Part shown: one piece after another, positions 1,757 through 53,588 of the stretch
How positions within the stretch are numbered: the stretch's first letter is position 1
Layout: each line of letters begins with the position of its first letter
Assembly: GCA_042568575.1 (NCBI GenBank)
Contig: JBHPIO010000001.1
Coordinates: forward strand, 128,001 to 192,000
Origin: Patescibacteria group bacterium
GTDB taxonomy: Bacteria > Patescibacteriota > Gracilibacteria > UBA1369 > PNNO01
DNA: 64,000 nt
Direction: 5' to 3'
Program-made: the position numbers and the translations under genes
The notes under the pieces: model-generated
The model's database searches: none
Told to the model about the DNA's origin: nothing
Seen by the model: the letters and a program-made list of their open reading frames with translations, nothing else

Positions 1757-1900
1757 GCCGAGAAGTTTACAAGGTTTTAGAGCCGAAATCAATAAAAATT
1801 CGTAAGACAAGCACCCGCAGCAATGGTAGTAGCTGCGGGGCCAGGTTGGTAGGCTTTGAAAGAGGATCCAGACCCAATTGAATGGGCTGGAAAAGGAGGG

Positions 1901-3457
1901 TTATGGGATGATCTGGATGGTGGGGCCGTTAATAGTGCCACCAAAGACGTTCCCGACGGGGAACGGTGTGTCGTCGATGTACGTGAAGCTAGTCTGCGGT
2001 GACAGGTAGCTAAAGTTGAACGTGGAACTCTGAGCTCCTGCAGCTGTGTCGAACGTGAACCAGAACTCGGTCGACTCACAAATTGGCAAGTTTACCGTAT
2101 CTGTAAGCTCGATGATACACGTGAACACGGTGGGGTCGCTATCATTCCAGCAATCTCCCATGACCACATCTTGTGGTCCAGAAAAAACAGCCTCCTGATT
2201 CTGAGAATTGTATGCCCAGGCCTTGATGTCCAGGATGTCCTGTGGGTCGTACTGTTTGTGCAGCTGGACCGGGAAACTCCACATCTTCAGGGAGTTTTGT
2301 GGCAGCACGCTGATGCTCAGACCCGTAACGTCGTTCTCTCCGGACAGGACGTCGAAGTCCGGCGGGTTATTGGCCGAAGGCACAAAGTGAACCTCGTGCC
2401 CTGGAATGTAGCGCGTAGTCGGATTGCCGTAGTCGGGAAATTCGACAGTGCTCACACCAAAGCCATAAGTACGTCCGATCGCCTCGATATCCATGGGGCT
2501 CTCGATGATGAAACCGACTGTATCGCACGGAGTTGTGCCACTCATGGACACAACAACGCTGAAGTGATACATCATTCCGCGTGGAATGTAGAAGGCCTCA
2601 GGAAGCGTAATTACGATATAATCGCCCACTATCTCCCAATCCACGTTTAGATCTCCGGATCCGCCACCAGCATTGACGGTCATCATCACGTGGACGATCG
2701 ATGTCGCATCAAAAGTTCCGATCTGCTTCATCCTGAACCTGTACAGATCCATGTCCTCGACGGTGGCCTCAAAGATGACCTCGGTCGTCGAGGTATTCTC
2801 GTCGTTCAAGCCATTCTCCGAGACATAGGCGTCGTAGTTCAACACGCCCACAACCGCACTCGTCGTGGTCATGGGATAGCCACAGAGCGGGAACTCCGGC
2901 AGGCCGATAACGTTCACAGGCTCGCCGGTGGTAACTCCGAATGCTGGCATGTGCTCCGGGAACTCTAAACAGAAGTAGTTCTCGGAGTTTTCAACCGCGT
3001 CCATGTTCGCATAAACGTCCATGTACGCGGACTCGCCAGCTCCCAGATAGAAAGTAGTTTCGGAGAAGTCGACCTGGTTAGTCGAAGTGCTAATTCCCAG
3101 GTACGGCGTCTCCTGATCTTCATCGAAGATCACTTGCACGACGGGCATGTCATTGGCATCACCCAACCCCCTTCTCGTGAGAGTGGGGCCAATGATCTCG
3201 ACATCTTGGTCTTCCGGCGCCTTCACCAGGAAGCGCACGAAGTGAACTCGCTGCGCAACGCGCGGAATATGTCTACCTTCAGGCGTGTTCTCGTCGATCT
3301 CCACGGTGAGATCCTTATTCTCCTCCGTGTTGTTGTTATTGGCATTGGAATTGCCGTTAACGTTGTTGTTGCCGTCGTAGCCAACGCTCCTTTCGCAAGC
3401 AGCAAAGGCCATGATGATCGCCGTAACGATCGCTATAGTTCTCGCGATGTGTCCCAA
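1901..3457 (-). CDS. GC-rich secreted lipoprotein with Asn-rich linker and beta-rich repeated domains
   Basis: In-frame TTG at 3457 preceded by AAAGGAGGG (3464-3472) gives the signal peptide MGHIARTIAIVTAIIMAFAA|C, followed by GNNNVNGNSNANNNN. GC is clearly above the flanks. Confidence 0.8.
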   Translation of the reverse strand: MGHIARTIAIVTAIIMAFAACERSVGYDGNNNVNGNSNANNNNTEENKDLTVEIDENTPEGRHIPRVAQRVHFVRFLVKAPEDQDVEIIGPTLTRRGLGDANDMPVVQVIFDEDQETPYLGISTSTNQVDFSETTFYLGAGESAYMDVYANMDAVENSENYFCLEFPEHMPAFGVTTGEPVNVIGLPEFPLCGYPMTTTSAVVGVLNYDAYVSENGLNDENTSTTEVIFEATVEDMDLYRFRMKQIGTFDATSIVHVMMTVNAGGGSGDLNVDWEIVGDYIVITLPEAFYIPRGMMYHFSVVVSMSGTTPCDTVGFIIESPMDIEAIGRTYGFGVSTVEFPDYGNPTTRYIPGHEVHFVPSANNPPDFDVLSGENDVTGLSISVLPQNSLKMWSFPVQLHKQYDPQDILDIKAWAYNSQNQEAVFSGPQDVVMGDCWNDSDPTVFTCIIELTDTVNLPICESTEFWFTFDTAAGAQSSTFNFSYLSPQTSFTYIDDTPFPVGNVFGGTINGPTIQIIP

Positions 3458-3511
3458 AGTAAACCCTCCTTTAAAGGTTTTCCTCATTGTCAAAAATCAA
3501 CTTGGATTAAG

Positions 3512-3539
3512 ATTGTACTATAAATAAGCGAATAGTCAA
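3512..3539 (-). promoter_or_regulatory. sigma70-like promoter TTGACT-16-TACAAT for the GC-rich lipoprotein gene, followed by boxA-like TGATTTTTGACAA (3487-3499)
   Basis: Near-consensus hexamers read on the minus strand. Confidence 0.55.
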
Positions 3540-3627
3540 TAGAGCGCACACGAGATTCCTCCCGGGAGGAGATTGACACAATACATTTCTTTCGTATACA
3601 TTGATCTCTTAATTTATTATTTATCAT

Positions 3628-4275
3628 ATGAAAGAAGACATCAGCCGCGAAGGCCTTACATCAGAAAAACTGCTTCAGCCATTATATTTACTCAGGCCAA
3701 AAAACAACCATGCAATAGCCAAGGTTCAAGAATTCACACAAATAAGACTTCAAAGAATAAATGAACTTCTTGGAAAAGACTACAAGGGTGCAATTTTAGA
3801 TATAGATGAGTGCACAGCCCCACATCACGGAGAGATTCTTCCAGAAAATTTAGAACATGTAGTAGAAATGATTCAAGACGGCACACGCGTAGTAATTTTC
3901 TCAAACATGAAAGCATCAGACCGATATAACGCCATTATTGACGCAACTAATGGAGCAGTCAAAGTGCATACCAGTCAATTTGCAAAACCAGATGCACGCG
4001 GGTTCTTAGAATGCTGCGATGAATTGAATCTTCTTCCTCATGAAGTAGTTATGATCGGCGACAATTTTATCACTGACGGTGGTTCAATAAGAGCTGGCAT
4101 CGACTTTATTAAGGTTGAACCAATTAAAACTGAAGGCGAATCAATTGGAAAAAAACTAAAAAGACTTCCGCAAACAGCTACAAGATGGTTTTACAGTAAA
4201 CTTTCAAATCTATACGACAAAATTTCTAAGAGAAAAGTGCTTAAGCCCGACGATATTTCTCCCAAATCTTCTTAA
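3628..4275 (+). CDS. HAD-superfamily IIIA phosphatase (YqeG-like)
   Basis: Motif I ILDIDEC, motif II VIFSN, motif III/IV AKP...MIGDNFITDGG. Confidence 0.8.
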   Translation: MKEDISREGLTSEKLLQPLYLLRPKNNHAIAKVQEFTQIRLQRINELLGKDYKGAILDIDECTAPHHGEILPENLEHVVEMIQDGTRVVIFSNMKASDRYNAIIDATNGAVKVHTSQFAKPDARGFLECCDELNLLPHEVVMIGDNFITDGGSIRAGIDFIKVEPIKTEGESIGKKLKRLPQTATRWFYSKLSNLYDKISKRKVLKPDDISPKSS

Positions 4276-4504
4276 AAAAAGACAAACTAAGCGTAGAAAT
4301 CACAAAAGCAGCAGTCGGAACAATCGAATTGATAAGCGGATCTGGCAATTCAGCTACATAGAAGAAAACAACAATCACAAGATAAGTTAATACAGCAACA
4401 ATCACTTTCCGAGTGAAGCTCATTTCCCATTTTTTATTAAGCTCAACACGTTTATTGCGTTCTTGTATTTTTGTGATTTCGGATTCAATTTGTTTAAGTT
4501 CCAT
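4241..4504 (-). CDS. Small two-TM membrane hypothetical protein
   Basis: MELKQIESEITKIQERNKRVE...WEMSFTRK followed by two hydrophobic segments; starts 10 nt after the msrAB stop. Confidence 0.7.
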   Translation of the reverse strand: MELKQIESEITKIQERNKRVELNKKWEMSFTRKVIVAVLTYLVIVVFFYVAELPDPLINSIVPTAAFVISTLSLSFFKKIWEKYRRA

Positions 4505-4514
4505 GGTAGTAGTA

Positions 4515-5348
4515 TTAAAAACGTTTAGTATACCCATGACAATACGGCTCATCCCCTTTTTTCTCATAATAATCTTGATGATAATCTTCAGCAGGCCAAA
4601 ACTTCCCTGCTTCACGTAATTCAGTCGCTACATCAAAGCCTTTTTCGTGCAACAATTCAATTAAACCCTCTGCAATTTTCTTCTGCTCTTCATCAATATA
4701 AAAAATAACAGAAAGATATTGCTCACCAATGTCAGGACCCTGACCGTCCTTTTGAGTAGGATCATGAGTCTCAAAAAATAATTTTGCTAGTTTCTCATAC
4801 GAAACCTGAGCAGGATCAAACAAAATCTCCAAAGCCTCAATATGCCCAGTAGTATGCGCACAAACTTCCTCATATGTTGGATTTTCTTTCTCACCACCAA
4901 TGTATCCAACTGTTGTATCAATCACTCCAGGTTCTTTTTGCATGTAATACTCAACTCCCCAGAAACAACCACCTGCAAATATCGCACGTCCAAGATCTTT
5001 CTCAGGAATAAAATTCATTGAAATTGAATTCACACAATGACGAACATTCTTCGGCGTATCCCCTTCTCCTTCAAAAACATGTCCAAGATGAGCATCGCAA
5101 CTCGCACATAAAATCTCCGTTCGCATACCATCCGCATCTGGCTCGTGTTTGATAGCACCTGGAATTTCATCATCAAAACTTGGCCAACCACAACTTGATT
5201 TAAATTTATCAGTCGATTTATACAGCAACGCATTACAACGCTTGCACGTATAAACTCCATCTTCAAAATGATCGTTATACTTGCCGGTAAAAGGAGCTTC
5301 CGTCCCTTTGTTAACGATTACGTCTTCTTCTTCAGGAGTTAATTTCAT
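4515..5348 (-). CDS. msrAB: Bifunctional methionine sulfoxide reductase, MsrB-MsrA fusion
   Basis: MsrB motifs GTEAPF, CGWPSF, HLGHVF, RHCVNS; MsrA motifs FAGGCFWGVE, GYIGG, AEDYHQDYY; start MKLTPEEE at 5348. Confidence 0.95.
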   Translation of the reverse strand: MKLTPEEEDVIVNKGTEAPFTGKYNDHFEDGVYTCKRCNALLYKSTDKFKSSCGWPSFDDEIPGAIKHEPDADGMRTEILCASCDAHLGHVFEGEGDTPKNVRHCVNSISMNFIPEKDLGRAIFAGGCFWGVEYYMQKEPGVIDTTVGYIGGEKENPTYEEVCAHTTGHIEALEILFDPAQVSYEKLAKLFFETHDPTQKDGQGPDIGEQYLSVIFYIDEEQKKIAEGLIELLHEKGFDVATELREAGKFWPAEDYHQDYYEKKGDEPYCHGYTKRF

Positions 5349-5350
5349 AA

Positions 5351-5581
5351 TTAAACGAAAATAAGGTACAAAAGTAGCACAAACGCTATCGTCCAATAAG
5401 TTGTCCAGAAAATATTATAAAACTTGTCCGTTTCATTTTTGAAAATCTTCGCAGGCGGCCAATAATATTTTTTCGACATAGACTTACTCTGATTTCCAAA
5501 AAAGCACTCAATGACATGCAGATGTAAATCATAGAAAACCATGACTGCCAAAATGATTGTAATTACTTCTTTAGTACTCAT
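5351..5581 (-). CDS. Small membrane hypothetical protein
   Basis: 76 aa with two hydrophobic ends; ATGA overlap with the upstream hydrolase gene. Confidence 0.6.
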   Translation of the reverse strand: MSTKEVITIILAVMVFYDLHLHVIECFFGNQSKSMSKKYYWPPAKIFKNETDKFYNIFWTTYWTIAFVLLLYLIFV

Positions 5582-6126
5582 ACTATTTCTTTAATCTTTG
5601 AAAGCAGTATATCAAATTCAGTATATCCAGACGACTGATTAATATGACCAGCACCTGGAACAAGAGTCACATCGATTTCAAGTTTTTCCGCTAGCTTCTC
5701 CGCTTTTTCGAGTTTAATATATGGATCATTATCTGAATGAAAAACATAAAAGTACTCACAATTCGATTTTATCTTCTCCCAATCAAACTCTCGTTGCGCA
5801 AACGTCACCATTCCAGGATCAAATTGATTGTCCGCTTTGCCATAAAAACCACTAACGAGAAAAGCCGCCTTCACCTTATAACGCTCAAGAACATTAAGCG
5901 CAAAAGGCACACCCAAACTGTGACCAATCAAAATCGCATCTTCATTGATGTCCTCTTTATATTGATCAAGTACATTCAACCAGTTTTCAAGCGTCTGCCC
6001 CTCAGGCGTAGGAAATTGAGGAATAATAACTTGTTGATCAAGATCTTCTAATTGTTCTTTGAGCCACGGAAACCAGTTTTCTTGAGGCGAACCCCCTACT
6101 CCGTGGAAGATGAATGTTGTGGGCAT
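5578..6126 (-). CDS. RBBP9/YdeN family alpha/beta hydrolase
   Basis: IFHGVGGSPQENWFPWL, nucleophile elbow GHSLG, HSDNDPY, GAGHIN. Confidence 0.9.
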   Translation of the reverse strand: MPTTFIFHGVGGSPQENWFPWLKEQLEDLDQQVIIPQFPTPEGQTLENWLNVLDQYKEDINEDAILIGHSLGVPFALNVLERYKVKAAFLVSGFYGKADNQFDPGMVTFAQREFDWEKIKSNCEYFYVFHSDNDPYIKLEKAEKLAEKLEIDVTLVPGAGHINQSSGYTEFDILLSKIKEIV

Positions 6127-6189
6127 ATTTTTAACATTAATTACTTCTCTGATATACTACCAACAAAGCATCTCCTAACAAACTTAAAA

Positions 6190-7548
6190 ATGCTGAAACG
6201 AACTCTCGCAATCATACTTTCTATTTCATTGATTGCTCTTAGTGGTGTACCTGCTTTTGCAGCAGGCGGTGCATGTTCTTATCACGACGGAATTGACTGT
6301 CTTACAGGCCCGGACACCGACGGTAGTGTAATTTGTAATGATGGCTGGAAAGCTGATTCGACATCATACTCAAGTGTGAAGTCAGCGTGTGGCGAAGATT
6401 ATCGTCCTTTTGCTGATGTTGATTCTTCAACCGAATATAACGAAGCTATTATAACTCTCTATGAGAAACAAGTGATTATCGGTTATCCAGATCAAACTTT
6501 CAAACCTTATAGTTTTATTAATCGTGCCGAGTTTTTAAAAATCCTTGTTGAAGGAAACGGAATCACTCCAGACGCAGATGTATACAAAGACTGTTTTCCT
6601 GACGTAACTGACGATTGGTACGCACCCCACGTGTGTTATGCAAAAGAGCAAGGATGGGTTGAAGGTTATCCAGACGGACAATTTAAAGCTACACAAAACG
6701 TAAACAAAGCAGAATCTATTAAAATGATTATCGAAATTCACGAATACAGCGATCTACTTCCTGAAATCGTTGAAGAAAGCAAGTACGAAGATGTTGCTAT
6801 GGATGATTGGTTCGCTCCGTATGTGCAAGTTGCTTACGATAAAGCGTTTATCATCCAGGAAATTTCATACTTAAATCCTGCTGACTTTATGACACGAGCA
6901 GGTATCACAGAAATGACATACCGCAGCATGATGGTTAAAGAATTCAATCTTGATACATTCCTCGATTACGATCCTCTTGATGAAGTAGTGCCAATTCCTG
7001 AACCAACTGTAATACTTAATTACTCATCAGAAAATCGTGCGATCGGTGAAGCTAACGCACCGATTGTAATTGTCGAATATAGCGATTATCAATGTCCTTT
7101 CTGCCAAAAACAGGCGGAAGAAGTTATTGCTAACCTAAAAATCGATTACATCGCAACTGGAGACGTATACTATGAGTTTAAAGACTTCCCTCTTGCGTTC
7201 CATACAAACGCAGCTACAGCAGCTATGGCAACAAATTGCGCAGCCGATCAAAACGCATTCTGGGAAATGCACGACATGATCTTCGAAAATCAAAGCGAAT
7301 GGTCATATTCTGAGGATGCTTCAGTTGAGTTTGAAAATTACTCAGATACTATTGGATTAGACTTAGAAGATTTTTCATTCTGCATGGCAGAAGAAACTCA
7401 CCTTGCTGACATCGAGGCTGACAGAGAAGCAGGAGTTGCAGCAGGCGTTACTGGAACACCCGCAATGTTCGTAAACGACGAACTATTTCTTGGCGTACAG
7501 GATTACACTACTTTAAGTGAATATTTAGACACCCTTCTTAGCGAATAG
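6190..7548 (+). CDS. Secreted SLH-domain protein fused to a DsbA/BdbD-like thioredoxin domain
   Basis: Signal peptide from ATG 6190; Cys motif GACSYHDGIDC...VICNDGW; SLH repeats (IIGYPDQTFKP..INRAEF, VEGYPDGQFK..VNKAE); EYSDYQCPFC and GVTGTPAMFVN. Confidence 0.88.
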   Translation: MLKRTLAIILSISLIALSGVPAFAAGGACSYHDGIDCLTGPDTDGSVICNDGWKADSTSYSSVKSACGEDYRPFADVDSSTEYNEAIITLYEKQVIIGYPDQTFKPYSFINRAEFLKILVEGNGITPDADVYKDCFPDVTDDWYAPHVCYAKEQGWVEGYPDGQFKATQNVNKAESIKMIIEIHEYSDLLPEIVEESKYEDVAMDDWFAPYVQVAYDKAFIIQEISYLNPADFMTRAGITEMTYRSMMVKEFNLDTFLDYDPLDEVVPIPEPTVILNYSSENRAIGEANAPIVIVEYSDYQCPFCQKQAEEVIANLKIDYIATGDVYYEFKDFPLAFHTNAATAAMATNCAADQNAFWEMHDMIFENQSEWSYSEDASVEFENYSDTIGLDLEDFSFCMAEETHLADIEADREAGVAAGVTGTPAMFVNDELFLGVQDYTTLSEYLDTLLSE

Positions 7549-7891
7549 ATTCCCGAATCTTCTTTGGAAGTTTCGCAAAAACAAGTTCATACGAATGATC
7601 GACAAGTTCTCTAACCAGCTTGTCGGTCATTTCTTTTTCCTCAACACTCACTGTATTCCAATGGTCCTTATTCATGTGATAACCGGGCACAACAGCCTTG
7701 TGCTTTTGTCGCAACGCCATCGCAAAAATAGGATCGCATTTGAGGTTCACAGTACACGGAGTTTTGTTGATATTCGTTAGAGCAAACATTTTGCCACTAA
7801 CACGAAAAACAAGCGTCTCGTGATCAAATGGAAAGTCACAAGTAGCTTTCGGCTTTGAAAGACAATGTTTTTTAAGTTGATTGATGTTCAT
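7538..7891 (-). CDS. MmcQ/YjbR family DNA-binding protein
   Basis: DFPFD...VFRVSGKMFAL, NLKCDP, PGYHMNKDHWNTV, LVDHSYELV. Confidence 0.92.
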   Translation of the reverse strand: MNINQLKKHCLSKPKATCDFPFDHETLVFRVSGKMFALTNINKTPCTVNLKCDPIFAMALRQKHKAVVPGYHMNKDHWNTVSVEEKEMTDKLVRELVDHSYELVFAKLPKKIRESIR

Positions 7892-8126
7892 CAGGTGAAC
7901 TTAAGGCTATTGCTCTAATGGATATTCTCTTTCCGTCTGCCACAGATTCCTTCATACATCCTATTAACGCATTAATGCCACGACGCTCGAATTTGCTTAC
8001 AAATTCTGCAACAATTATTGCAGGATCTTCCTCTGGATATCTTTTTGGAGTTTCGAAATCAGTTTCGCCATCTCTTCCCAATGCAATTTCTATTCTAGCC
8101 ATCTCTTCGTCTAAAATTGTGAACAT
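7872..8126 (-). CDS. Hypothetical protein
   Basis: 84-aa ORF with its own TTGACA-16-TATAAT promoter at 8160-8187. Confidence 0.55.
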   Translation of the reverse strand: MFTILDEEMARIEIALGRDGETDFETPKRYPEEDPAIIVAEFVSKFERRGINALIGCMKESVADGKRISIRAIALSSPDEHQST

Positions 8127-8202
8127 AATAATTTTGGTAATATTTGATTAAAGGAGATGATTATATTTGATCACCAGATTATGTCAAGCAATGTTTGATA
8201 TC

Positions 8203-11471: not shown

Positions 11472-11917
11472 TATTTACCTTTTATTTCAACTTTAACCTT
11501 TGCGTGAACTTCGTCTGTAAGCTTTACAGTAACTTTGTGCTTTCCAACAGTCTTAATATGTTCAGCCATGTCGATCTGTTTCTTCTTAAGTTTAACTTTC
11601 CCTTGTTCTTCAAGAGCTTTAACAAGTTCTTTTTCACCAATTGATCCGTAAAGTGTATCTTTGTCAGTTGTTTTTTCTTCAAACGTAATAGTTAATCCTT
11701 CAAGCTTCTTTTTGATTTCTTCTGCATTTTTCACAACTTCTTCTTTTTCTTTAACTGACTGTTCTTGCAATTTTTTAGCCCATTCAAGCAAGTTAGGGTT
11801 TGCAACCTTCGCTACTTTGCGAGGAGCAAGAAAATTTCGATAGTATCCGTCTTTAACGTTTTTAACATCTCCTTTTTTCCCGAGATTCTCAACGTTTTTA
11901 GTTAATATAATCTGCAT
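11471..11917 (-). CDS. rplI: 50S ribosomal protein L9
   Basis: MQIILTKNVENLGKKGDVKNVKDGYYRNFL, LYGSI, IKTVGKH. Confidence 0.96.
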   Translation of the reverse strand: MQIILTKNVENLGKKGDVKNVKDGYYRNFLAPRKVAKVANPNLLEWAKKLQEQSVKEKEEVVKNAEEIKKKLEGLTITFEEKTTDKDTLYGSIGEKELVKALEEQGKVKLKKKQIDMAEHIKTVGKHKVTVKLTDEVHAKVKVEIKGK

Positions 11918-12066
11918 CTTATTTAATATTTAGATTGTAAAAATAAAGCAGGGATACGATAGAGGAAAAACACGTTGTTGTAAATGGAAAATTTATTTAA
12001 ATTTGGGAAAGCTTCCGACCGAAAGGTGGGACGACTGCCGGCAGGAACCTGCGGCGGGACGTACGG

Positions 12067-12267
12067 TCATTTAGAACGACCGGAAGCTTGGGAAGGGCCA
12101 TGAATCGCCCTCGACAGGGAGAAACCTTCTTCTCCCAGGCGCGGGACCTGTGCTCGTAGGATCTGCCATCTCCTTTCGCGCTGTTTTGGAGTTCTGGCAC
12201 TATCGGCTTGATATGCCATCCCCAACAAATTCCATGATCTACACATCAGCGTTCTTTCACTCGGCAT
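12067..12267 (-). CDS. Small basic GC-rich hypothetical protein (66 aa)
   Basis: ATG at 12267 preceded by GAGGAGGTG; promoter TTGACA-16-TAGAAT at 12316-12343; GC-rich hairpins downstream (12010-12060). Confidence 0.55.
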   Translation of the reverse strand: MPSERTLMCRSWNLLGMAYQADSARTPKQRERRWQILRAQVPRLGEEGFSLSRAIHGPSQASGRSK

Positions 12268-12371
12268 CGTCACCTCCTCGAGAAATACATGCCCTTGTTT
12301 ATAGAAACCATACGAATTCTAATAGTTATTAGTAATTTGTCAAGCTCCACCTGGGTGGAATCTAAAATTTC

Positions 12372-14240: not shown

Positions 14241-14246
14241 ATACTC

Positions 14247-14462
14247 TTATACAAAAAGATATAAAACTGAACTTGCCACAAAGAGTACCGCAAAAATTAC
14301 AGTCAAATTGAAAAGAACCTTTTCAGCTCCTCTTTTACTAACATGAAATCCTCCAGATCCTCCAAAAGTTGCTGATAACCCAGCACTTCTTTGCTGTGAA
14401 AGGATCGAAAGAATTAAAAGTACTGATACTACGATTTGAAATAGATCTAGAAACGTTTTCAT
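14247..14462 (-). CDS. secG: Preprotein translocase subunit SecG
   Basis: ILSQQRSAGLSATFGGSGG...KRGAEKVLFNLT between two TM helices. Confidence 0.92.
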   Translation of the reverse strand: MKTFLDLFQIVVSVLLILSILSQQRSAGLSATFGGSGGFHVSKRGAEKVLFNLTVIFAVLFVASSVLYLFV

Positions 14463-14470
14463 ATTTTAAT

Positions 14471-14836
14471 TTATTTAAGAATAATGTTTTGCGCCCAGTT
14501 TATTAACCCGAGTACGATTCCTGCAAGCAAATAACTACCAATTCCAGTGAATACTAAAGTAACATCCTGAAACGCCATTGTATTGATAACCCACTGAGTA
14601 AGAAACAAAACTATCGCGTTGATTACAATCAAGAAGAGTCCAGCAGTCAAAACCACAAACGGAAGAGAAAAAATCTTCATAATCGGCTTAATAAAGGCAT
14701 TTATTAGCCCAATAATAACACCACCAATAATAAATAGTTTGAGACCACCTGTCCCAGTTACTTCATCAAGGAATTCGATTAACACATAAAGTGTTACTGC
14801 GTTAAGTGCTATACCTATTAATATGCGTTTAAGCAT
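14471..14836 (-). CDS. 4-TM phage-holin-family (YvlD-like) membrane protein
   Basis: GLINAFIKPIMKIFSLPFVVLTAGLFLIVINA signature. Confidence 0.85.
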   Translation of the reverse strand: MLKRILIGIALNAVTLYVLIEFLDEVTGTGGLKLFIIGGVIIGLINAFIKPIMKIFSLPFVVLTAGLFLIVINAIVLFLTQWVINTMAFQDVTLVFTGIGSYLLAGIVLGLINWAQNIILK

Positions 14837-14924
14837 GTCCTATGAGGTTTAATAAATAGTCGAGTGAAAGTATAGGGAAAATAGAGAAAAAATTCCAGTA
14901 GTTTTAATAATTATTAAAAAATTC

Positions 14925-14952
14925 TTGACGAATATCGAATTAGAACTATAAT
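14925..14952 (+). promoter_or_regulatory. sigma70-like promoter TTGACG-16-TATAAT
   Basis: Near-consensus hexamers upstream of the GC-rich ORF at 15044. Confidence 0.6.
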
Positions 14953-15043
14953 GCGGCCAGTTGTAAATCTAAGCTCTTCGCAACTATGCGAAGGTGCAGG
15001 ATTCATGCATCGCTAATTCACAAACAGGACACGGAGGGAAAGA

Positions 15044-15340
15044 ATGCAGCGTTTCAGGATTGTGAACCATCAGCAAAACCCCGACATGACAGCACTAAGT
15101 CAGAAGAAAAAGAAGTTGCGCTTCTCATTTGCCGTCCAAATCGATGCGGGTGGCAAAGATCGACCGCCCATCACGAAGATGATCACTGTGAAGGCTTCGA
15201 CAGTGACTCGCAAGAACGGGAAATTCGTGATCAAGGCGCAAGTCCAGAGCTCGTCAGCCGCAGAGATCGCCAAAGGTGCGGCCGTGAAAGTGAGCAGCTA
15301 CAGCCCCAACCTCAAAAACGGGGATCTTACGGTCAACTAG
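15044..15340 (+). CDS. Small basic GC-rich hypothetical protein (98 aa)
   Basis: GGAGG SD upstream of the ATG; GC3-rich codons in this frame; hairpins in the 5' and 3' UTRs. Confidence 0.65.
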   Translation: MQRFRIVNHQQNPDMTALSQKKKKLRFSFAVQIDAGGKDRPPITKMITVKASTVTRKNGKFVIKAQVQSSSAAEIAKGAAVKVSSYSPNLKNGDLTVN

Positions 15341-15484
15341 ACCACGGCTCACAGCGCCACTTCAAACGGACTCGGAATGCAAACACCCTTTAACTGCGTA
15401 GCGGTGCCTATCCAGCGGCACACAACCACAAAAAAATCACAAAAGCGGATTAGATTGGAGGATGTGCCGCTTTTTGTAATACGT

Positions 15485-18400
15485 CTACTTCTCCCTCCTT
15501 ACTCCAAGAACAACTTTATGTCCGTCAACTTCAACGGTTTCTTCTAATTCCCACGTAAATTCACTTCCTTGCTGCAATTCAAGTCCAAGGGTTTCTCGTT
15601 TAATGTAGTCAGCAAAATCAGTTACGGCTTGTTCGACATCTCCATCTGTTTTCACCTGAACATAGATGCGCTCAAACACCTCAAATCCCGCTTTCTTACG
15701 CATTTCCTGAATGTATCTGATGATTTCACGAGCATATCCTTCCGATTTTAATTCCGGCGTTATTGTTGTATCTAAAACAACAACAAATCCTGCTTCACCT
15801 TGGACGTCATATCCTTCTTTTCCTTCAAATCCAACTTCAAACTCGTCTTTTTCCAAAGTTACATCGCCAACTTTTATTCGTCCATCTTCAAGCTCTTCAA
15901 AATCACCAGATTTTACCGTTTGGATAATTTTTTGAACATCCTTTCCATGCTTTGGTCCAAGTTTTCGAGCATCCGGCCTAACAACTTTAGTAACGATATC
16001 CCCTACTTCAGTTAACACGTGAAGCTCTTTAACGTTTAGCTCTTCCGTAATAACATCCTTTGACGCCTCAACTATTGCATGATTTACGCTATCAGGCAGA
16101 CCAATTTGAACCTTAGCAAGCGGCTGACGCACCTTAACTCCACTTTTTGCCCTAACACTATGCCCAAGATTCACAATTCTTCTAACAACAGCCATTTCTT
16201 CATTGAGAGACTTATCAATCTTTTTCTTATCCGCAACAGGCCAATCACACAAATGAACCGACTCTTCACACGCCTTGCATGATTTGCTCAAATTTCTATA
16301 CATCTCATCCGCTACAAACGGCATAAAAGGAGCAATCAATTTTGAAAACTCTTTTAACACAACGTAAAGAGTTTGATATGCCTCGTTCTTATCATCATCA
16401 TTTTCCGATTTCCAAAAACGCCTTCGACTTCTTCGGATATACCAGTTCGACAAGTTATCAACAAATTCAATCATAGGACGAGTTCCTTTTGTAAGATTGT
16501 ATGCATCTAATTCCTTTGTCGACTCTTCAGTTAACTGGTGAAGCTCAGATATAATCCACTGATCCAATTTATGCTTTGGCTCAAAATCTCCATTTATCTT
16601 TCCAGGATGCCATTTGTCGATATTCGCATAAGTCACAAAGAAACTGTACGTATTCCATAGTGTTAATAAGAATTTCTTTATCATCTCATCAACATGCGCT
16701 TCCGAGAAACGAACATCTTCCGCAAGTGGCGCAGTCGACGAATAAAGGAAGAATCTAACTGCATCAACCCCTCGAGTATCAAAAAGCATATTCGGATCCG
16801 GATAATTCTTCTTTCGTTTTGAGAGTTTTTCTCCATCCGCAGCAAGAAGTATTCCGTTTACAATCACATTTTCAAAAGCCGACGAATCAAACAGGATAGT
16901 TGCAATCACATGCAGTGTATAAAACCATCCGCGAGTTTGATCGAGCCCTTCTGCAATAAACTGAGCAGGGAAATTCTTTTCAAACTCCTCTTTATTTTCA
17001 AAAGGATAATGAAGCTGCGCATACGGCATTGATCCACTTTCGAACCAACAATCAAGCACTTCGGGAATTCGTTTCATAGATTTTCCACACTTCTCACATT
17101 TAAGTTCAACACTATCAATATATGGCTTATGTAAATCCAAATCACCATGGCGCTCCGGGATTTTACCTCCCGATTTTTCCTTAAGATCATCAACAGATCC
17201 AACACAGGTTTTATGATCACATTCCGTACATTCCCAAATCGGAATTGGACATCCCCAGAATCTATTACGAGAAATCGCCCAATCTCGAGCTCCTTCAAGC
17301 CATTTTCCGAATCGTCCTTCCTGAATATGTTCAGGCTGCCAATGAATTTTCTTATTGTTAGCTTGAAGTTTATCTTTGATATCAGTAACACGAATGAACC
17401 ACGACTTAGTTGTAAAATTAAGCAGTGGAGTATCACATCTCCAACAATGAGGATACGAGTGACGATAATTTTCTTTGCTAAACAAAAGCCCTTCTTCGTG
17501 AAGCCACGTCATAATGTTTTGATCCTGACTTTTCACAAATTTTCCTGCCCACGGCTTAACATCATCAACAAAAGTTCCATCCATATGTACGTGTTGAAGC
17601 ACCTCAAGATCATGTTTCTGACCAAGATGCAGATCATCCTCACCAAACGCAGGAGCAATGTGTACAACACCAGTTCCATCCTCAGTCGACACAAAGTCGG
17701 CAAGCAAAATTACGTATGCTTTTTTCTCTAGTTTGCCTTCAAAAAACGGAAATAGAGGTTTGTACTCTTTTCCTTCAAGAGATTTTGGATCAACATCTTC
17801 CAAAACTTCATAAGGTGTATCCCCCATCACTTTTTCAACTAAATCTTTTGCAAGAATATATTTCTCATTTTCTACAGCAATTTTCACATATTTAACATCT
17901 CCTCCAAACGCAAGCGCAACATTCCCCGGAAGCGTCCAAGGAGTTGTTGTCCATGCAAGAACAAAGGTGTCCGACTCATCTTTTAATGGAAACTTAGCAA
18001 TCACAGAAAGATCCGTAACATCTTTGTATCCCTGACTCACCTCAAAATTCGATAAAGGCGTCTCGCATCTTGGACAAATGTGCATACTTTTGTGCCCCTG
18101 GTAAACCATATCTTTATCCCAAATCTGCTTAAATACCCACCAAATCGATTCCATGTAGTTATTCTCCAGTGTTGCATAACTCTCGCTTGTATCAACCCAT
18201 CGTCCGATTCTTCTTAGGAGCTTTTCCCATTCTTCCGTATACGTAAACACACTTGCACGACATTTGTCGTTAAAGTTCTCCAATCCATATTCTTCGATTT
18301 CTTTTTTACCTGAGATTTCTAGTTCTTTCTCAATTTCATATTCAACAGGAAGTCCATGACAATCCCAACCATTTGTTCGTGGAACGTAATATCCCTTCAT

Positions 18401-18637
18401 GGTCCAGTATCTTGTGACTGCATCTTTTAGAGCATTAGCAAGGATATGTCCGTAATGAGGCAGACCATTGGCAAATGGAGGCCCATCAAAAAACACATAC
18501 TTCTTCCCGCTTTTTCTGCGAACTACAGATTGCTCAAAGATGTGATTTTCATCCCAGTATTTGAGCATTGCCTGCTCCATATCTGGGAATGACTGCTTTG
18601 CATTCACATCATTAAATGGTTGTTCGTTATTGTTCAT
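15485..18637 (-). CDS. ileS: Isoleucine--tRNA ligase (type 2, long form)
   Basis: DGPPFANGLPHYGH (HIGH), GWDCHGLP, WTTTPWTLP, DWAISRNRFWG, EGLDQTRGWF, KLSKR (KMSKS). Confidence 0.97.
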   Translation of the reverse strand: MNNNEQPFNDVNAKQSFPDMEQAMLKYWDENHIFEQSVVRRKSGKKYVFFDGPPFANGLPHYGHILANALKDAVTRYWTMKGYYVPRTNGWDCHGLPVEYEIEKELEISGKKEIEEYGLENFNDKCRASVFTYTEEWEKLLRRIGRWVDTSESYATLENNYMESIWWVFKQIWDKDMVYQGHKSMHICPRCETPLSNFEVSQGYKDVTDLSVIAKFPLKDESDTFVLAWTTTPWTLPGNVALAFGGDVKYVKIAVENEKYILAKDLVEKVMGDTPYEVLEDVDPKSLEGKEYKPLFPFFEGKLEKKAYVILLADFVSTEDGTGVVHIAPAFGEDDLHLGQKHDLEVLQHVHMDGTFVDDVKPWAGKFVKSQDQNIMTWLHEEGLLFSKENYRHSYPHCWRCDTPLLNFTTKSWFIRVTDIKDKLQANNKKIHWQPEHIQEGRFGKWLEGARDWAISRNRFWGCPIPIWECTECDHKTCVGSVDDLKEKSGGKIPERHGDLDLHKPYIDSVELKCEKCGKSMKRIPEVLDCWFESGSMPYAQLHYPFENKEEFEKNFPAQFIAEGLDQTRGWFYTLHVIATILFDSSAFENVIVNGILLAADGEKLSKRKKNYPDPNMLFDTRGVDAVRFFLYSSTAPLAEDVRFSEAHVDEMIKKFLLTLWNTYSFFVTYANIDKWHPGKINGDFEPKHKLDQWIISELHQLTEESTKELDAYNLTKGTRPMIEFVDNLSNWYIRRSRRRFWKSENDDDKNEAYQTLYVVLKEFSKLIAPFMPFVADEMYRNLSKSCKACEESVHLCDWPVADKKKIDKSLNEEMAVVRRIVNLGHSVRAKSGVKVRQPLAKVQIGLPDSVNHAIVEASKDVITEELNVKELHVLTEVGDIVTKVVRPDARKLGPKHGKDVQKIIQTVKSGDFEELEDGRIKVGDVTLEKDEFEVGFEGKEGYDVQGEAGFVVVLDTTITPELKSEGYAREIIRYIQEMRKKAGFEVFERIYVQVKTDGDVEQAVTDFADYIKRETLGLELQQGSEFTWELEETVEVDGHKVVLGVRREK

Positions 18638-18820: not shown

Positions 18821-18930
18821 GCGTGGCCGAGTGGCGCTCGAAAAGTGATAACTTTTCTTTGGTACGCATTTACCTGTACTTTTAGCACAGATAAAGTCTA
18901 CCACGAAAGCTTTAAAATGCAAGTTGGAAA

Positions 18931-20274: not shown

Positions 20275-20400
20275 AATATTTTGTGTTAATTTTTGTTTTA
20301 CCATCATATTATTTTAGCATATTTTAGACATTTTGTTAAGCCCTAACCTTGACATAGCTCTCATTTTCCGTACAATTACCTCCAATCTAAATTATTTACT

Positions 20401-22831: not shown

Positions 22832-22838
22832 TTTTAAT

Positions 22839-23291
22839 TTAGTTAAATTTAGCTTTAATACTTTTGATATGTTCTGCAACACGCTTTTTAAGTTCTGGAT
22901 CGCTGTTACTTAGAATTCTCGTTACTGCCATAGCCGCATTTTGTGGATCAACAACCGTTAAAACAGGTGTATCTGAGGGCATTTGAAGTGTCGAATGCAT
23001 ATTAATAAGCATATCCTCTTTGCCAGAAAATGGAGGACAAGCAATAACAGGATGATTACTATTTGCTGCCACAACTCCAGAAAGACCGTTTGAACGACCA
23101 GCAATTGTTATATAACAGATATCTTCATCAGACTCGTTATATTTCTGAACGACTTCAAAAACTTTTTCAGGAACTTTATGAGCGGAGGCAACTGTGATTT
23201 CGTAAGGAATTTTCCATTCATCAAGAATGTTTGTGATTTTTTCAGCGAATACTTTATCAGATTCGCTACCCATAAGTATTGGAACTAACAT
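22839..23291 (-). CDS. purE: AIR carboxylase / N5-CAIR mutase
   Basis: ILMGSESD, VASAHK, IAGRSNGLSG, PVIACPP, STLQMPS. Confidence 0.92.
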   Translation of the reverse strand: MLVPILMGSESDKVFAEKITNILDEWKIPYEITVASAHKVPEKVFEVVQKYNESDEDICYITIAGRSNGLSGVVAANSNHPVIACPPFSGKEDMLINMHSTLQMPSDTPVLTVVDPQNAAMAVTRILSNSDPELKKRVAEHIKSIKAKFN

Positions 23292-23303
23292 ATTGTTTGC
23301 GGT

Positions 23304-24272
23304 TTATTGCATATAAGGTTTAAGATTTTCTGTAACGCGAGCAAGTGGATCCCCCACTTCTCCTTCGAATGTTTTTCCAGTGATAAGTTCGTATGCTTCG
23401 ATATATCTTCGAGCTGCTTCTACTCGCACCTCATCTGGTAACTCAGGAACTTCTCCTTCTCCGATAAATCCTTGATCAGCAAGCCATTCTCGAACATACT
23501 CTTTGTCGATTTTCTTTTGTTCTTCCCCAGCTGCAAAACGTTGATCATATTCGTTCTGGAACCAAAAACGAGAAGAATCAGGTGTGTGAATTTCATCAAT
23601 CAAAATGATTTCACCATCAGGAGTTTTTCCGAATTCGTACTTTGTATCAACAAGGATAATCCCCTGTTTCGCAGCAATCTCAACCCCTCTCTTGAAAAGT
23701 TTCATTGCAACGTCAGCCATGTAATCAAAATCTTCTTCAGTAATTTTTCCTTCTGCTAGAATTTCTTCTTTCGAAGCCGAAACATCATGATCACCATGTG
23801 CAGCTTTTGTAGAAGGAGTTAGGATCGGTTCATCAAATTTTTGGTTCTTTTTTAGGCCTTCAGGTAATTGATTACCGCAGAAATTCCGTACGCCTTTTTC
23901 ATAATTGTACCAAGCAGAAGTTGATGTAACTCCTGTGATGTATCCGCGAACAACCATCTCAACAGGCATTGCCTCACACTGTTTAACAACAATTGCATTT
24001 GGATCCGGTAATTCAATCATATGATTTCCAACAATGTCTTTAGTCTCATCAAACCAAAATGTTGCCATTTGATTAAGAACTTGGCCTTTAAATGGAAGAA
24101 GTGTTATTATTCGATCGAACGCCGAAAGACGGTCTGTAATTACAATAATACGTTTCTCACCTTGAGTGTAGTTATCCCGAACTTTGCCTTCATAACGTTC
24201 ACCCATATTCGTAAAATTAGTTCCCTTAAAGCATAGAGGGAGTTGTTTCTGGAGGTCTTCAACTGAAATCAT
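23304..24272 (-). CDS. purC: SAICAR synthase
   Basis: YEGKVRD, TDRLSAFD, EMVVRGY, LTPSTKA, LVDTKYEFG, IDEIHTPDSSRFW, DKEYVR. Confidence 0.97.
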   Translation of the reverse strand: MISVEDLQKQLPLCFKGTNFTNMGERYEGKVRDNYTQGEKRIIVITDRLSAFDRIITLLPFKGQVLNQMATFWFDETKDIVGNHMIELPDPNAIVVKQCEAMPVEMVVRGYITGVTSTSAWYNYEKGVRNFCGNQLPEGLKKNQKFDEPILTPSTKAAHGDHDVSASKEEILAEGKITEEDFDYMADVAMKLFKRGVEIAAKQGIILVDTKYEFGKTPDGEIILIDEIHTPDSSRFWFQNEYDQRFAAGEEQKKIDKEYVREWLADQGFIGEGEVPELPDEVRVEAARRYIEAYELITGKTFEGEVGDPLARVTENLKPYMQ

Positions 24273-24486
24273 TTGTATTTTGAATTAAATAGTATGTGTG
24301 TCTTAAATTTATATTAATTGTTGGAAAGGATCAATGTTGATTTTGCATGTCGAAAAACCACTTTTCAATTAAAGCGGATTAGGGGTTTTCAGGGCGGCTC
24401 AAACAAATAAATGCTTAAGCGCGCCCCGATAGCCCGAGTTTCAGACGGATTATAGGTGCGCGAAACGCGCGAGGTGGGTCGAGAGG

Positions 24487-24963
24487 TCAGCGGCGGATGG
24501 ACTTGGGCGTGAGCGTGGCCTGGATCGCGAGTCGCCTCACGCGAATCTCGGGCATGCTGGGACAGGACTTCTGCACCGGGAGGACGCAGTCCAAGGCGCG
24601 CCCCCAAAGGTCTTGCTGGAGCCACTTGCTCAGCTGGCCCGCCGGGACGGTACGCATCTTGTCGCGATAGGCCTTAATTTTCTTCAAATCCTGGTGGCCA
24701 ATCCAGCCCTTCGTGGAGTGCGGGTCAGGCCACTTGCACTCGAACTTCACGGGTATGGGGCCGCGCGATTTCGCGAGCACCTCGATCTTGCACTGACGCA
24801 TCTCGAGTTGGATCGCGATGAACCACCTCGCCCTGGGTGTCTCGTTGATGACGCGATTCTCGTACTTGAAGTTGATCTTCGCCGGCTTGGGCTTCTGCAC
24901 AGTCGCCGCACAGCCACCGAGCATCATCACGGCCACGATCATTCCGATGTTTCTCAGCTTCAT
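24487..24963 (-). CDS. GC-rich basic lipoprotein, unknown function
   Basis: Signal peptide MKLRNIGMIVAVMMLGG|C; SD AGAGGAGTGA upstream; high GC. Confidence 0.75.
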   Translation of the reverse strand: MKLRNIGMIVAVMMLGGCAATVQKPKPAKINFKYENRVINETPRARWFIAIQLEMRQCKIEVLAKSRGPIPVKFECKWPDPHSTKGWIGHQDLKKIKAYRDKMRTVPAGQLSKWLQQDLWGRALDCVLPVQKSCPSMPEIRVRRLAIQATLTPKSIRR

Positions 24964-24994
24964 CTCTCACTCCTCTGTTTTACGGGGCGTACCC

Positions 24995-25648
24995 CTACTT
25001 GGTTCTTCTTACGCCTGGCGGTGGTTCCACCAAGCGACTACGTTTCTTGAACTCCTGATGTGCCTTCCTCAAGCATCTGATGCGCTTGGCAGGCAACGGA
25101 AACATCATGCAGATCGACTGATGACTGTTTCTGGTGCAGAGATACGGCAAGCCGTCCCTGTACTTCACCATCATCAGTTGGTGCATAGCAGCCTTCTTGG
25201 CCCAGGTGCCAAACTTGACACCGTTCGACACCATAATCAAGGGTATGAGTTTACCCGATGTCGGACACTTCTTGTGGTGAGTCGTCAGGCTATAGACCGG
25301 AATCGGGTGGATGTACGTAACCGTTCGATTCGGAAACTTGCACACCACGGCGATCTTGGAAGAGTCCCGAATGTAGATAAAGAAGTTTCCGCAGTAGGGA
25401 TTCGCACCCCATGCGGAAATCCAGATCTGAAAGGACTTCCAGACTCTGATGTTCATCTGCCTATACTTCTCGCGCTCCATCGCCTTCTCGATGTCAGGAC
25501 ACTTGGACCGCTTCACGACTTCTACGTCTGCACATGACGATTGTTGATTTGCCCTCCAGCAAGTCAGATATGAACCATTCGAACAAACCGGACCGCAGCC
25601 ACTTAGCAGCAGTCCGATCGCCATCGCAGTCAAAACCAAAGTCTTCAT
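24995..25648 (-). CDS. GC-rich Cys-rich basic lipoprotein, unknown function
   Basis: Signal peptide MKTLVLTAMAIGLLLSG|C; SD AAAGAGGTGA; many Cys. Confidence 0.75.
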   Translation of the reverse strand: MKTLVLTAMAIGLLLSGCGPVCSNGSYLTCWRANQQSSCADVEVVKRSKCPDIEKAMEREKYRQMNIRVWKSFQIWISAWGANPYCGNFFIYIRDSSKIAVVCKFPNRTVTYIHPIPVYSLTTHHKKCPTSGKLIPLIMVSNGVKFGTWAKKAAMHQLMMVKYRDGLPYLCTRNSHQSICMMFPLPAKRIRCLRKAHQEFKKRSRLVEPPPGVRRTK

Positions 25649-25918
25649 GAGATCACCTCTTTCGTTTCGTTATTTGTATGCGAGCACTTCTGGCTCGCAA
25701 TTTTCCGTCTTTTTCTCGGGATTACCACCGGCAACACCGCATGAACCAAAAAAAATCAGTATCAGGGAGTTACCTGGCAGTAAGCCAAGAAAAAGTTTGT
25801 CAAAGGACAAAAAAGGTTACCATTACACCATAACCAAGCCGCGAAGTCAACGTTTTGTTCTTATTTAAATTTTATACTATACTTCCCCTGACAAAATTAT
25901 AACTACTAACGAAATCCT

Positions 25919-50598: not shown

Positions 50599-53588
<2,990 letters not shown>

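Follow-up and report, generated by a model that had tools for sequence, protein, structure and literature searches.

Introduction

Horizontally acquired genomic islets and phage-type 'morons' are autonomous promoter-gene-terminator cassettes of deviant GC content. According to the amelioration framework attributed to Lawrence and Ochman, the composition of acquired genes is said to decay toward that of the host with residence time, and gene transfer from host to symbiont has reportedly taken place in episymbionts that belong to the candidate phyla radiation (CPR), such as Saccharibacteria. Here we describe four GC-rich islets within a 64,000-nucleotide (nt) stretch of the genome of a Patescibacteria group bacterium (assembly GCA_042568575.1, hereafter G000), which corresponds to positions 128001-192000 of contig C1 (JBHPIO010000001.1) and is referred to as the window. 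The islets contain open reading frames (ORFs) led by Shine-Dalgarno (SD) motifs, and we examined how they relate to the rest of the genome and to its relatives. We propose that an AT-rich backbone that avoids SD motifs coexists in this genome with a GC-rich, SD-led gene class, that islets 2-4 are gained cassettes, and that the class is lineage-wide and kept GC-rich atop repeated import, a reading that we consider probable although by no means secure.

The closest described system for translation that disregards SD motifs is that of Bacteroidia, in which the anti-SD sequence of the ribosome is buried by bS21, bS18 and bS6, as set out in two reports (Jha et al. 2021, PMC7797042; McNutt et al. 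2023, PMC9976891). In these bacteria rpsU has an extended SD and is autoregulated via ribosomes without bS21, which translate mRNAs with strong SDs better (PMC7797042; PMC9976891). A different situation from the one described here is found in part of Parcubacteria, which has lost the anti-SD motif according to PMC9297842.

Results

A GC-rich, SD-led gene class in an SD-avoiding genome

G000 is a draft assembly (1,203,139 bp in 31 contigs, 38.3% GC, 81.8% complete, 0.19% contamination), and the window lies inside a contig of 226 kb. For comparison we used a genome of the same genus (G001) and two of the same family (G005 and G006), of which G006 belongs to another genus and is a complete, single-contig genome of 1.37 Mb with 35.5% GC. 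The backbone of G000 was represented by 843 non-overlapping ORFs of at least 120 amino acids (aa) with a GC content at third codon positions (GC3) below 0.42, including 832 with a full leader, and an SD was scored where positions -20 to -3 matched the SD consensus over at least 4 nt. Such a match precedes 6.2% of the 832 backbone ORFs, compared with 14% of control windows at -90 to -60 and 17.5% of internal coding windows. Backbone leaders are poor in G (.05-.10) and rich in A (.45-.54) over positions -13 to -10, with the enrichment in A extending to -14. A sequence-only reading of the window had noted that housekeeping genes such as ileS, purA, purC and msrAB lack SD motifs; the identities of these four were confirmed, and the lack of SDs is genome-wide. 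The anti-SD CCUCC is nevertheless intact in the 16S rRNA of G000, which ends in ...GGATCACCTCCTTTC, and the 16S tails of G000 and G006 both end in ...CACCTCCTTTC.

The second class comprises about 32 genes, or about 3% of the genes of G000, with GC3 of about 0.6-0.85. The GC3 distribution of ORFs of at least 200 aa peaks at 0.2-0.4 and then runs flat to 0.8, a tail that includes some wrong-frame ORFs. At four-fold degenerate sites the class favors C (.39) and G (.29) over T (.17) and A (.15), whereas the backbone carries mostly T (.40) and A (.37), with G at.13 and C at.10. Stop codons differ as well, with TAG in 17, TGA in 8 and TAA in 7 of the 32 class genes, compared with TAA in 584 of the 843 backbone ORFs (69%). 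When starts were taken from the longest ORF, 45.9% of 37 GC3-rich ORFs had an SD of at least 4 nt, which is to be compared with the 6.2% of the backbone. Choosing the best start within 50 codons yielded an SD of at least 4 nt for 28 of the 32 class genes and of at least 6 nt for 17, whereas a similar permissive procedure, over 60 codons, yielded 34% and 4% in the backbone. SD-like words inside coding sequence are equally common in GC3-rich genes (18%) and in the backbone (17.5%), and therefore GC-richness alone does not create the SD signal. Taken together, these data uphold the distinction between two gene classes drawn in the sequence-only reading: GC3 is bimodal with a GC-rich tail, and the SD goes with the GC-rich class.

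The products of the class are mostly predicted to be exported proteins or lipoproteins and are Cys-rich (3.2% Cys compared with 0.9% in the backbone), which shows a predicted bias toward the cell envelope. A hydrophobic N-terminus was assigned to 20 of the 32 class products and to 311 of the 843 backbone products (p = 0.005), and a lipobox-like motif to 8 of 32 and 34 of 843, respectively (p = 6e-5). Starts chosen by their SD often expose a clean signal peptide. Adaptation of the class to the tRNA pool was rejected as an explanation of its codons: Aragorn found 24 tRNAs in G000 and 34 in G006 (23-32 distinct tRNAs), among which no CNN anticodon reads NNG within a box of four codons; those with a CNN anticodon are for Met, Trp, Leu-UUG, Gln, Lys, Glu and Arg-AGG. 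A tRNA set that is not adapted to G/C-ending codons would be expected if the islets were recent imports from GC-rich, SD-using bacteria, perhaps the host, with GC and SD as unameliorated donor traits. This explanation by plain horizontal transfer, which also accommodates the foreign appearance of GC3, stop usage and SD alike, is in our judgment a serious but less than even prospect, and the age and the relatives of the class genes bear on it below.

The class persists across genera

The divergence between G000 and its relatives was gauged by IleS, whose identity to the window IleS is 90-94% in G001, 79% in G006, 68% in G013, 54% in G025 and 49% in L062 (G041). Separately, G001 has a second, divergent IleS-like ORF (G001:C75:25406-28918; 1220-aa open frame) that is 51-57% identical to the window IleS. 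Relatives at the level of order and phylum have small genomes, of 0.7-2.0 Mb among those listed.

In G006 about 25 genes are GC3-rich, and an SD of at least 4 nt precedes 40% of these 25 but only 4.5% of 1018 backbone ORFs; the anti-SD is intact there as well. Homologs of 9 of the 32 class genes of G000 were found in G006, and 7 of these 9 are GC3-rich in both genomes. Three are positional orthologs with conserved flanks: M23/Golvesin, whose product is an M23 peptidase with Golvesin_C; the gene of one DUF4215 protein; and the gene at C2:53138. A search for M23/Golvesin located it in 8 of 61 genomes belonging to the order, all five of the other family genomes searched among them; its GC3 is.53-.77 in seven genomes and.46 in one, with flanks at about.3. 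All eight orthologs have an SD before the signal-peptide start. The pairwise similarity of M23 is highest in same-genus pairs (0.66 and 0.61), except that the pair from G000 and G005, which belong to different genera, reaches 0.64, a pattern that appears mostly to fit vertical descent. An AT-rich ORF lies just ahead of M23 in the family genomes, and its 3' end holds the M23 SD and overlaps the M23 start; an apparent conserved hairpin 5' of the M23 SD was dropped as a candidate element because it is the coding 3' end of this ORF.

We next compared these orthologs with the composition expected after synonymous turnover, using 25,681 four-fold sites from 250 of the 508 reciprocal-best pairs between the backbones of G000 and G006. 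These sites are close to saturation, with an identity of.400 compared with.323 expected at saturation, and the correlation of GC state is.063, which corresponds to a per-lineage memory of GC state of about 0.25. Under the backbone regime, a gene with 100% GC3 at the split would therefore now be expected to have a GC3 of at most about.42. The positional orthologs have a GC3 of 0.62-0.72 in G000 and 0.56-0.72 in G006. Furthermore, mean GC3 is.687 in the 7 shared members and likewise.687 in the 23 members without a G006 homolog, and class composition thus did not approach that of the host as residence time grew. A single old transfer that simply fades does not fit the positional orthologs under this model. 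Capture alone cannot account for the class, since it includes positional orthologs of long standing that remain GC-rich. Taken together, the comparison across genera shows the class to be a lineage trait older than the islets, which the other genus also has and some members of which keep both high GC3 and the SD.

GC-biased gene conversion at hot spots of recombination could produce a similar outcome if envelope genes, which evolve fast, undergo frequent recombination, following DNA uptake for instance, and are driven GC-rich, with the SD following from G-richness together with selection for initiation on structured mRNAs. Several observations are in keeping with this alternative: members of the class evolve much more quickly than the genes around them (identity is 46-49% for M23, compared with 67-77% for its neighbors, and about 30% for the DUF4215 ortholog), GC enrichment extends to amino-acid usage and to untranslated parts of the islets, and M23 similarity follows genus grouping. 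However, conversion leaves unexplained the clean gain of whole cassettes and the Myxococcota-like metabolic genes described below, and the frequency of SD-like words inside GC3-rich coding sequence is no higher than in the backbone. To our knowledge, the effects of conversion in bacteria are also much smaller than a shift in GC3 from about 0.3 to 0.6-0.9. We therefore regard gene conversion as an improbable source of the class.

Islets 2-4 are recent gains

Backbone DNA is 79-87% identical to the window in G001 and 67-76% in G005 and G006, and all three genomes are collinear with it on both sides of the islets. The borders given for islets 2-4 in Table 1 were refined by comparison with G001. 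There the matches to the left and right of islet 3 abut, and the entire cassette (Table 1) is missing; only 25 bp separate these matches in G006, and 129 bp do so in G005. The islet 4 cassette (Table 1) is likewise missing from G001, and G005 has a gap of 210 bp at its place; the corresponding place in G006 measures 1268 bp, in which no GC-rich block was seen. Islet 2 is absent from G005 and G006, and G001 has a different, AT-rich stretch of 692 bp in its stead. By parsimony, this distribution shows that islets 2-4 were probably inserted after the split from G001, into short intergenic gaps. Islet 1 lies inside a 3.77-kb stretch (1797-5570) that is wholly missing from the syntenic place in G001, and its junction is less clean than those of islets 2-4 because this stretch also holds AT-rich genes. 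The absence of islets 2-4 from the closest relatives is what plain horizontal transfer predicts, and for the window's own islets nothing contradicts it.

The sequence-only reading had described a TTGAC-type promoter for each islet and had suggested that captured genes were placed behind native promoters. In a consensus scan, islets 1-3 did each have a promoter-like site at the upstream edge; the sites of islets 2 and 3, which lie within inserted DNA, are the two best in 11800-15700 (11 of 12 matches). The site of islet 4 was recognized by eye only and fails the rule of the scan. These sites are consensus matches only, and their number is not above that in shuffles. A terminator-like signal detected by scan in islet 4 also falls inside the DNA that is missing from relatives. 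Because the promoter-like sites belong to DNA that relatives lack, whole transcription units with their own signals appear to have been inserted, rather than genes that landed behind resident promoters, and the suggestion of native promoters does not hold.

The junctions of islets 2-4 feature microhomology of 4-5 nt and no clear target duplication. No inverted repeats, flanking repeat, recombinase, transposase or integrase were seen at the islet junctions, in agreement with the sequence-only reading, and no paralogs of the islets were found within G000. The gap that holds islet 2 (11994-12371, compared with L035:5152-5844, the unrelated insert of G001) appears to have received insertions more than once. 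The 1.2-Mb genome contains the 11-mer AAGCGGATTAG just twice, at window positions 15443 (3' edge of islet 3) and 24372 (left edge of islet 4); as an edge signal shared by the two islets it was rejected, since the coincidence is probably due to chance given the number of comparisons.

The sources of class genes appear mixed

We refer to the protein of islet 1 as isl1, that of islet 3 as isl3 and the two of islet 4 as isl4a and isl4b. Among 5.8 billion proteins of similar length, isl1, isl3 and isl4a match only themselves. Two relatives of isl4b, both metagenomic, were found among 1.84 billion representatives, with identities of 67% and 37% and conserved Cys residues; when metagenome contigs were scanned for members of the isl4b family and for P0004, no encoding contig was recovered. 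Of 205 genomes of the order that were searched, G000 was the only one with the isl4b family (none of the 204 others), and the islets have no plasmid or phage match. Remote relatives of isl1, with 27-33% identity, are present in 9 of 12 other family genomes, and a sample of 400 further genomes from the phylum yielded weaker ones in 11. In every case these relatives form part of proteins of 1150-1500 aa (616 aa in one), and those in the family use ordinary AT-rich codons (GC3 0.17-0.28) and are native surface proteins of sister genera. The structural neighbors of isl1 in the ESM Atlas are CPR surface proteins, at a TM-score of about 0.5.

Outside the window, 12 of 20 class proteins have Pfam matches. 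The matches are Cys-rich DUF4215 repeats (three, one below the cut-off), the M23 peptidase with Golvesin_C, SLH (at the cut-off), TSP3_bac (below the cut-off), an OPT transporter, GT87, an enoyl-CoA hydratase, a zinc alcohol dehydrogenase, a FadB-like enzyme and a thiolase. The 20 best matches of the island thiolase (55-61% identity) comprise 14 Myxococcota-type metagenome-assembled genomes with 62-76% GC, 5 sequences without an informative taxon label and L062. In a tree of thiolases, G000 and L062 are successive long-branched sisters of the Myxococcota clade and are not nested within it. A search for FadB in 151 genomes of the order located it in G000 and in none of the 150 others. In L062, a more distant CPR genome, FadB-like, thiolase and OPT genes occupy positions of about 3200-8200 in an island of its own with 56-66% GC, in a backbone of 38-47% GC.

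The other islands of G000, which hold FadB-like, thiolase, enoyl-CoA hydratase, alcohol dehydrogenase, GT87 and OPT genes, together with the Myxococcota-type labels of most of the best thiolase matches and the restriction of FadB to G000, lend support to plain horizontal transfer. On the other side, no donor emerged, with three of the four window proteins orphans and no plasmid or phage match, the relatives of isl1 are native AT-rich family genes, the positional orthologs are more GC3-rich than decay from any starting value would leave them, old and young members do not differ in GC3, and the SD is kept in all eight M23 orthologs. For the islet proteins, the searches revealed no relative closer in a donor lineage than in the kin of G000. 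Because isl1, isl3 and isl4a are orphans, the relatives of isl4b are metagenomic, the kin of isl1 are native and only the thiolase is Myxococcota-like, the sources of class genes would seem to be mixed and mostly unsampled, and a single GC-rich host donor is unsupported. The capture from a GC-rich host that the sequence-only reading had suggested is thus sustained in part: islets 2-4 were gained, but these results do not show a single host donor, and capture does not by itself explain the whole class.

The family displays a Bacteroidia-like signature of SD-blind translation

Pfam identified bS21 in G006 and G005, and 21 of 24 relatives proved to have a homolog of bS21. We aligned rpsU from 14 relatives (L181-L194), which consist of 11 family genomes, including the same-genus G001, and 3 of other families. 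All 14 have a GAAAGGAGGTG-like SD of about 10 nt located 6-8 nt before the rpsU start; in G006, AAAGGAGGTG lies 7 nt before a TTG start (L142:8239-8258). As a pattern in sequence, SD avoidance, a kept anti-SD, A-rich leaders and an extended rpsU SD together are the full signature of the SD-blind regime of Bacteroidia, here in a CPR order. A literature search of the text available to it did not find Bacteroidia-type SD avoidance with an rpsU SD in print for CPR, and a word search of the available text of PMC9976891 and PMC13000453 returned no mention of Patescibacteria or candidate phyla.

The sequence-only reading had speculated that the class is tuned for translation by the ribosomes of another cell, after delivery of mRNA or DNA to a host. 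Circumstantial points in its favor are the foreign-style codons and SDs and a TraD-like coupling-protein gene nearby (8203-10974). However, the 16S rRNA of G000 keeps the anti-SD, rpsU of relatives uses the same SD, the SD is conserved on the vertically inherited M23 gene, and the promoter-like sites are of the sigma-70 type. In addition, 20 of the 32 products carry a hydrophobic N-terminus or lipobox-like motif, predicted signals for export to the envelope of the producing cell, and some class members are in operons that overlap native genes. These results speak against the speculation, to which we assign almost no probability.

The TraD-like ORF itself (8203-10974, minus strand) is AT-rich, encodes 923 aa and matches a type IV coupling protein model weakly (TIGR03743, E 4e-12, far below the cut-off). 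Rfam recognized a 23S rRNA, a 5S rRNA, two tRNAs and nothing else as RNA genes in the window. The rRNA genes are unlinked, in that 23S and 5S lie at window positions 50337-53589 (minus strand), about 20 kb from the sole 16S found, at G000:C1:202067-203530 (minus strand). The ribosomal protein uL30 was not found in G000, which, together with the small genomes of its relatives and the CPR origin of the structural neighbors of isl1, places G000 in the CPR.

Features of the four islets

The GC content of the islets is 0.533 (1811-3470), 0.551 (12000-12295), 0.520 (14950-15430) and 0.542 (24385-25790), compared with 0.380 for the rest of window positions 1-27500. These values (52-55% compared with 38%) bear out the contrast that the sequence-only reading had described, and two 60-nt lines that it had singled out do have a GC content of 0.62 and 0.68. 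A profile in 200-nt windows resolves four blocks of 0.49-0.625 above a background of 0.31-0.44. The five SD motifs that the sequence-only reading had named are present at their places, and the small proteins of islets 2 and 3 are basic, as it had read them (Table 1).

Codon-position GC (positions 1/2/3) is.51/.40/.67 for 1901-3493 (minus strand),.48/.39/.69 for 15044-15340 (plus strand),.53/.43/.85 for 24487-24963 (minus strand) and.42/.44/.67 for 24995-25648 (minus strand), while 13 neighboring long backbone ORFs have a GC3 of.18-.33. From this pattern, four of the five islet ORFs are real genes in a GC-rich style. The ORF of islet 2 at 12067-12273 (minus strand) lacks the coding pattern (.52/.58/.49), and the fold of the islet 2 RNA has no excess stability over shuffles (z-score -0.86); its coding status is uncertain because it has neither a codon-position pattern nor a fold better than shuffles. 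At the gathering score Rfam gave no match in any islet; for islets 2-4 a threshold as lax as E<=1 gave none either, and Pfam gave nothing above the cut-off for the islet ORFs of the window. A match of isl3 to Levi_coat (Pfam E 0.084) was below the cut-off and was taken as chance, and the ESM Atlas returned just low-confidence small beta-barrel look-alikes for isl3. Regular expressions found lipobox-like motifs after a hydrophobic segment in isl1 (FAAC), isl4a (LGGC) and isl4b (LSGC). An AlphaFold2 model of isl4b, built from a 3-row alignment, has a predicted local distance difference test score (pLDDT) of 41, too low to be of use. Besides ileS, purC and purA, NCBIfam confirmed msrAB, thrC and a Rid-family gene among the AT-rich neighbors. 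Outside the window, a 1.9-kb region of 53% GC (G000:C1:11881-13800) has ORFs with a weak codon-position signal and may not belong to the class.

Table 1. Islet cassettes, their parts and backbone neighbors, in window coordinates (pI, isoelectric point)
Feature	Coordinates	Strand	Remarks
Islet 1 cassette	1797..3560	-	GC 0.53, GC3 0.67; promoter scan; acidic putative lipoprotein
Islet 1 promoter-like TTGACT-16-TACAAT	3539-3512	-	consensus scan
Islet 1 SD AAAGGAGGG	3472-3464	-	
isl1 ORF	1901-3457 from TTG (alternative starts ATG 3487, TTG 3493)	-	518-530 aa, pI 4.1, stop TAA
Islet 2 cassette	11994..12371 (left and right ends approximate)	-	GC 0.55-0.59
Islet 2 promoter-like TTGACA-16-TAGAAT	12343-12316	-	consensus scan
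Islet 2 SD GAGGAGGTGA	12279-12270	-	
Islet 2 candidate ORF	ATG 12267 to TGA 12067	-	66 aa (66-68 by start), basic, pI 11.4; coding status uncertain
Islet 3 cassette	14916..15485	+	GC3 0.69; promoter scan 11/12
Islet 3 promoter-like TTGACG-16-TATAAT	14925-14952	+	consensus scan
Islet 3 SD GGAGG	15033-15037	+	
isl3 ORF	15044-15340	+	98 aa, pI 10.7, stop TAG
Islet 3 hairpin and T-run	~15441-15477	+	by eye
Islet 4 cassette, two-gene unit between purC and purA	24346..25851	-	GC 0.54, up to 0.62 in 200-nt windows
Islet 4 TTGACT...TGTAAT	TTGACT at 25850-25845	-	by eye only; fails promoter-scan rule
isl4b SD AAGAGGTGATC	25661-25651	-	
isl4b ORF	24995-25648	-	217 aa, LSGC lipobox-like, 11 Cys, GC3 0.67
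isl4a SD AGAGGAGTGA	24976-24967	-	
isl4a ORF	24487-24963	-	158 aa, LGGC lipobox-like, GC3 0.85
Islet 4 terminator-like hairpin, 3' edge	24377-24358	-	terminator scan
ileS, backbone neighbor	15485..18637	-	TIGR00392, 970 bits; GC3 0.32; without SD
purC, backbone neighbor	23304..24272	-	NCBIfam NF009251, 439 bits; GC3 0.27; AT-rich leader without SD
purA, backbone neighbor	25919..27226	+	NCBIfam NF002223, 549 bits; GC3 0.27; without SD

An islet such as islet 2, without a coding signature, in a draft genome of 31 contigs that is 82% complete, raises the question of an artefact, either a chimeric assembly or binning error or GC-rich structured RNA misread as ORFs. Against the first of these, the islets sit inside the 226-kb contig with native flanks on both sides, and the same class occurs in the single contig of G006 and at syntenic places across genera. 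The inserts also hold promoter-like sites in islets 1-3, by scan, and a terminator-like hairpin in islet 4. Misread RNA is at odds with the coding pattern in four of the five ORFs, with the lack of Rfam matches and with the ordinary fold stability of islet 2. We consider an artefact very improbable.

Discussion

The reading that we favor, of an SD-avoiding backbone and a GC-rich, SD-led class that is partly inherited and partly imported, would have the following consequences. Backbone genes would be initiated without SD pairing, from A-rich, G-poor leaders, and class genes would be translated by the cell's own ribosomes through pairing of SD and anti-SD. If the anti-SD is sequestered as in Bacteroidia, expression of the class could be tied to the fraction of ribosomes in which it is free. 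The GC-rich state may be upheld by a gene-specific force, such as selection at the level of mRNA or DNA, or a conversion bias where loci recombine, and repeated import of foreign cassettes would add to the class. In its boldest form, this reading holds that one cell runs two initiation regimes: an SD-blind one for the approximately 97% of genes that are AT-rich and housekeeping, and an SD-dependent one, perhaps using ribosomes that lack bS21, for an insulated set of fast-evolving envelope genes that recruits foreign cassettes and whose GC style is actively maintained. We offer this form as a speculation that is unlikely to be right in full.

Several points weigh against the favored reading. 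The class was delimited by a custom ORF filter rather than a gene caller, which left 50 candidates after filtering and overlap removal and 32 credible GC3-rich genes, and the assignments of signal peptides, hydrophobic N-termini and lipoboxes are crude regular-expression heuristics. The amelioration model is a rough, stationary two-state model that ignores rate heterogeneity, and repeated in-place replacement by foreign alleles is a possible alternative to maintained GC3. Conservation of the M23 SD in the family genomes may partly reflect overlapping protein coding. With respect to translation, rpsU was not found in G000 itself, and is probably in the missing 18% of the genome. The bS21 of G006 is weakly similar to solved chains and has no special likeness to any solved bS21. 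Furthermore, the loss of bS21 in Flavobacterium affects very strong SDs only, according to PMC9976891, and the SDs of isl3 and isl4a have only 5-nt cores. As stated above, plain recent transfer also meets no contradiction in the islets of the window, and if the class were only unameliorated transfer, it would represent ordinary islet biology in a poorly known phylum.

Like genomic islets and morons, the class deviates in GC, codon and stop usage and has accessory envelope functions, and the islets carry promoter-like sites (1-3) or a terminator-like hairpin (4), lie between conserved genes and are present or absent among relatives. Unlike morons, the islets of G000 are in the chromosome and not in a prophage, and neither a mobility gene nor a clear target duplication nor a donor was found for them. 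Unlike ameliorating islets, part of the class appears to be vertically inherited, with no decay toward host composition. Positional orthologs that are GC-rich after synonymous turnover are not predicted by the standard amelioration picture.

The transfer of genes from host to symbiont that is reported for other CPR bacteria offers a second comparison. G000 resembles such cases in its reduced genome, its foreign-looking accessory genes and an island with thiolase and FadB-like genes that includes a Myxococcota-like thiolase. It differs from them in that its thiolase and that of a second CPR genome fall outside the sampled Myxococcota clade, on long branches, and in that the islet proteins have no relatives in named organisms. 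These results raise the testable question of how, with their tiny genomes, episymbionts retain a flexible repertoire of surface proteins and express it.

The closest parallel for the mode of initiation is found in Bacteroidia, with which this CPR order shares genome-wide SD avoidance, A-rich leaders, a kept CCUCC and an extended rpsU SD (14 of 14 relatives). The phylum is a different one, and the likeness here lies in the sequence signature. The occurrence of the full signature in a CPR order goes beyond ordinary islet biology, as does the limitation of SD use to a distinct, envelope-biased set of about 3% of genes, and the two raise the testable question of whether specialized ribosomes define a regulon outside Bacteroidia. 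In Flavobacterium, rpsU is reported to be virtually the sole gene with a strong SD, whereas G000 has about 30 further, compositionally distinct genes with SDs, of which 17 of 32 reach at least 6 nt.

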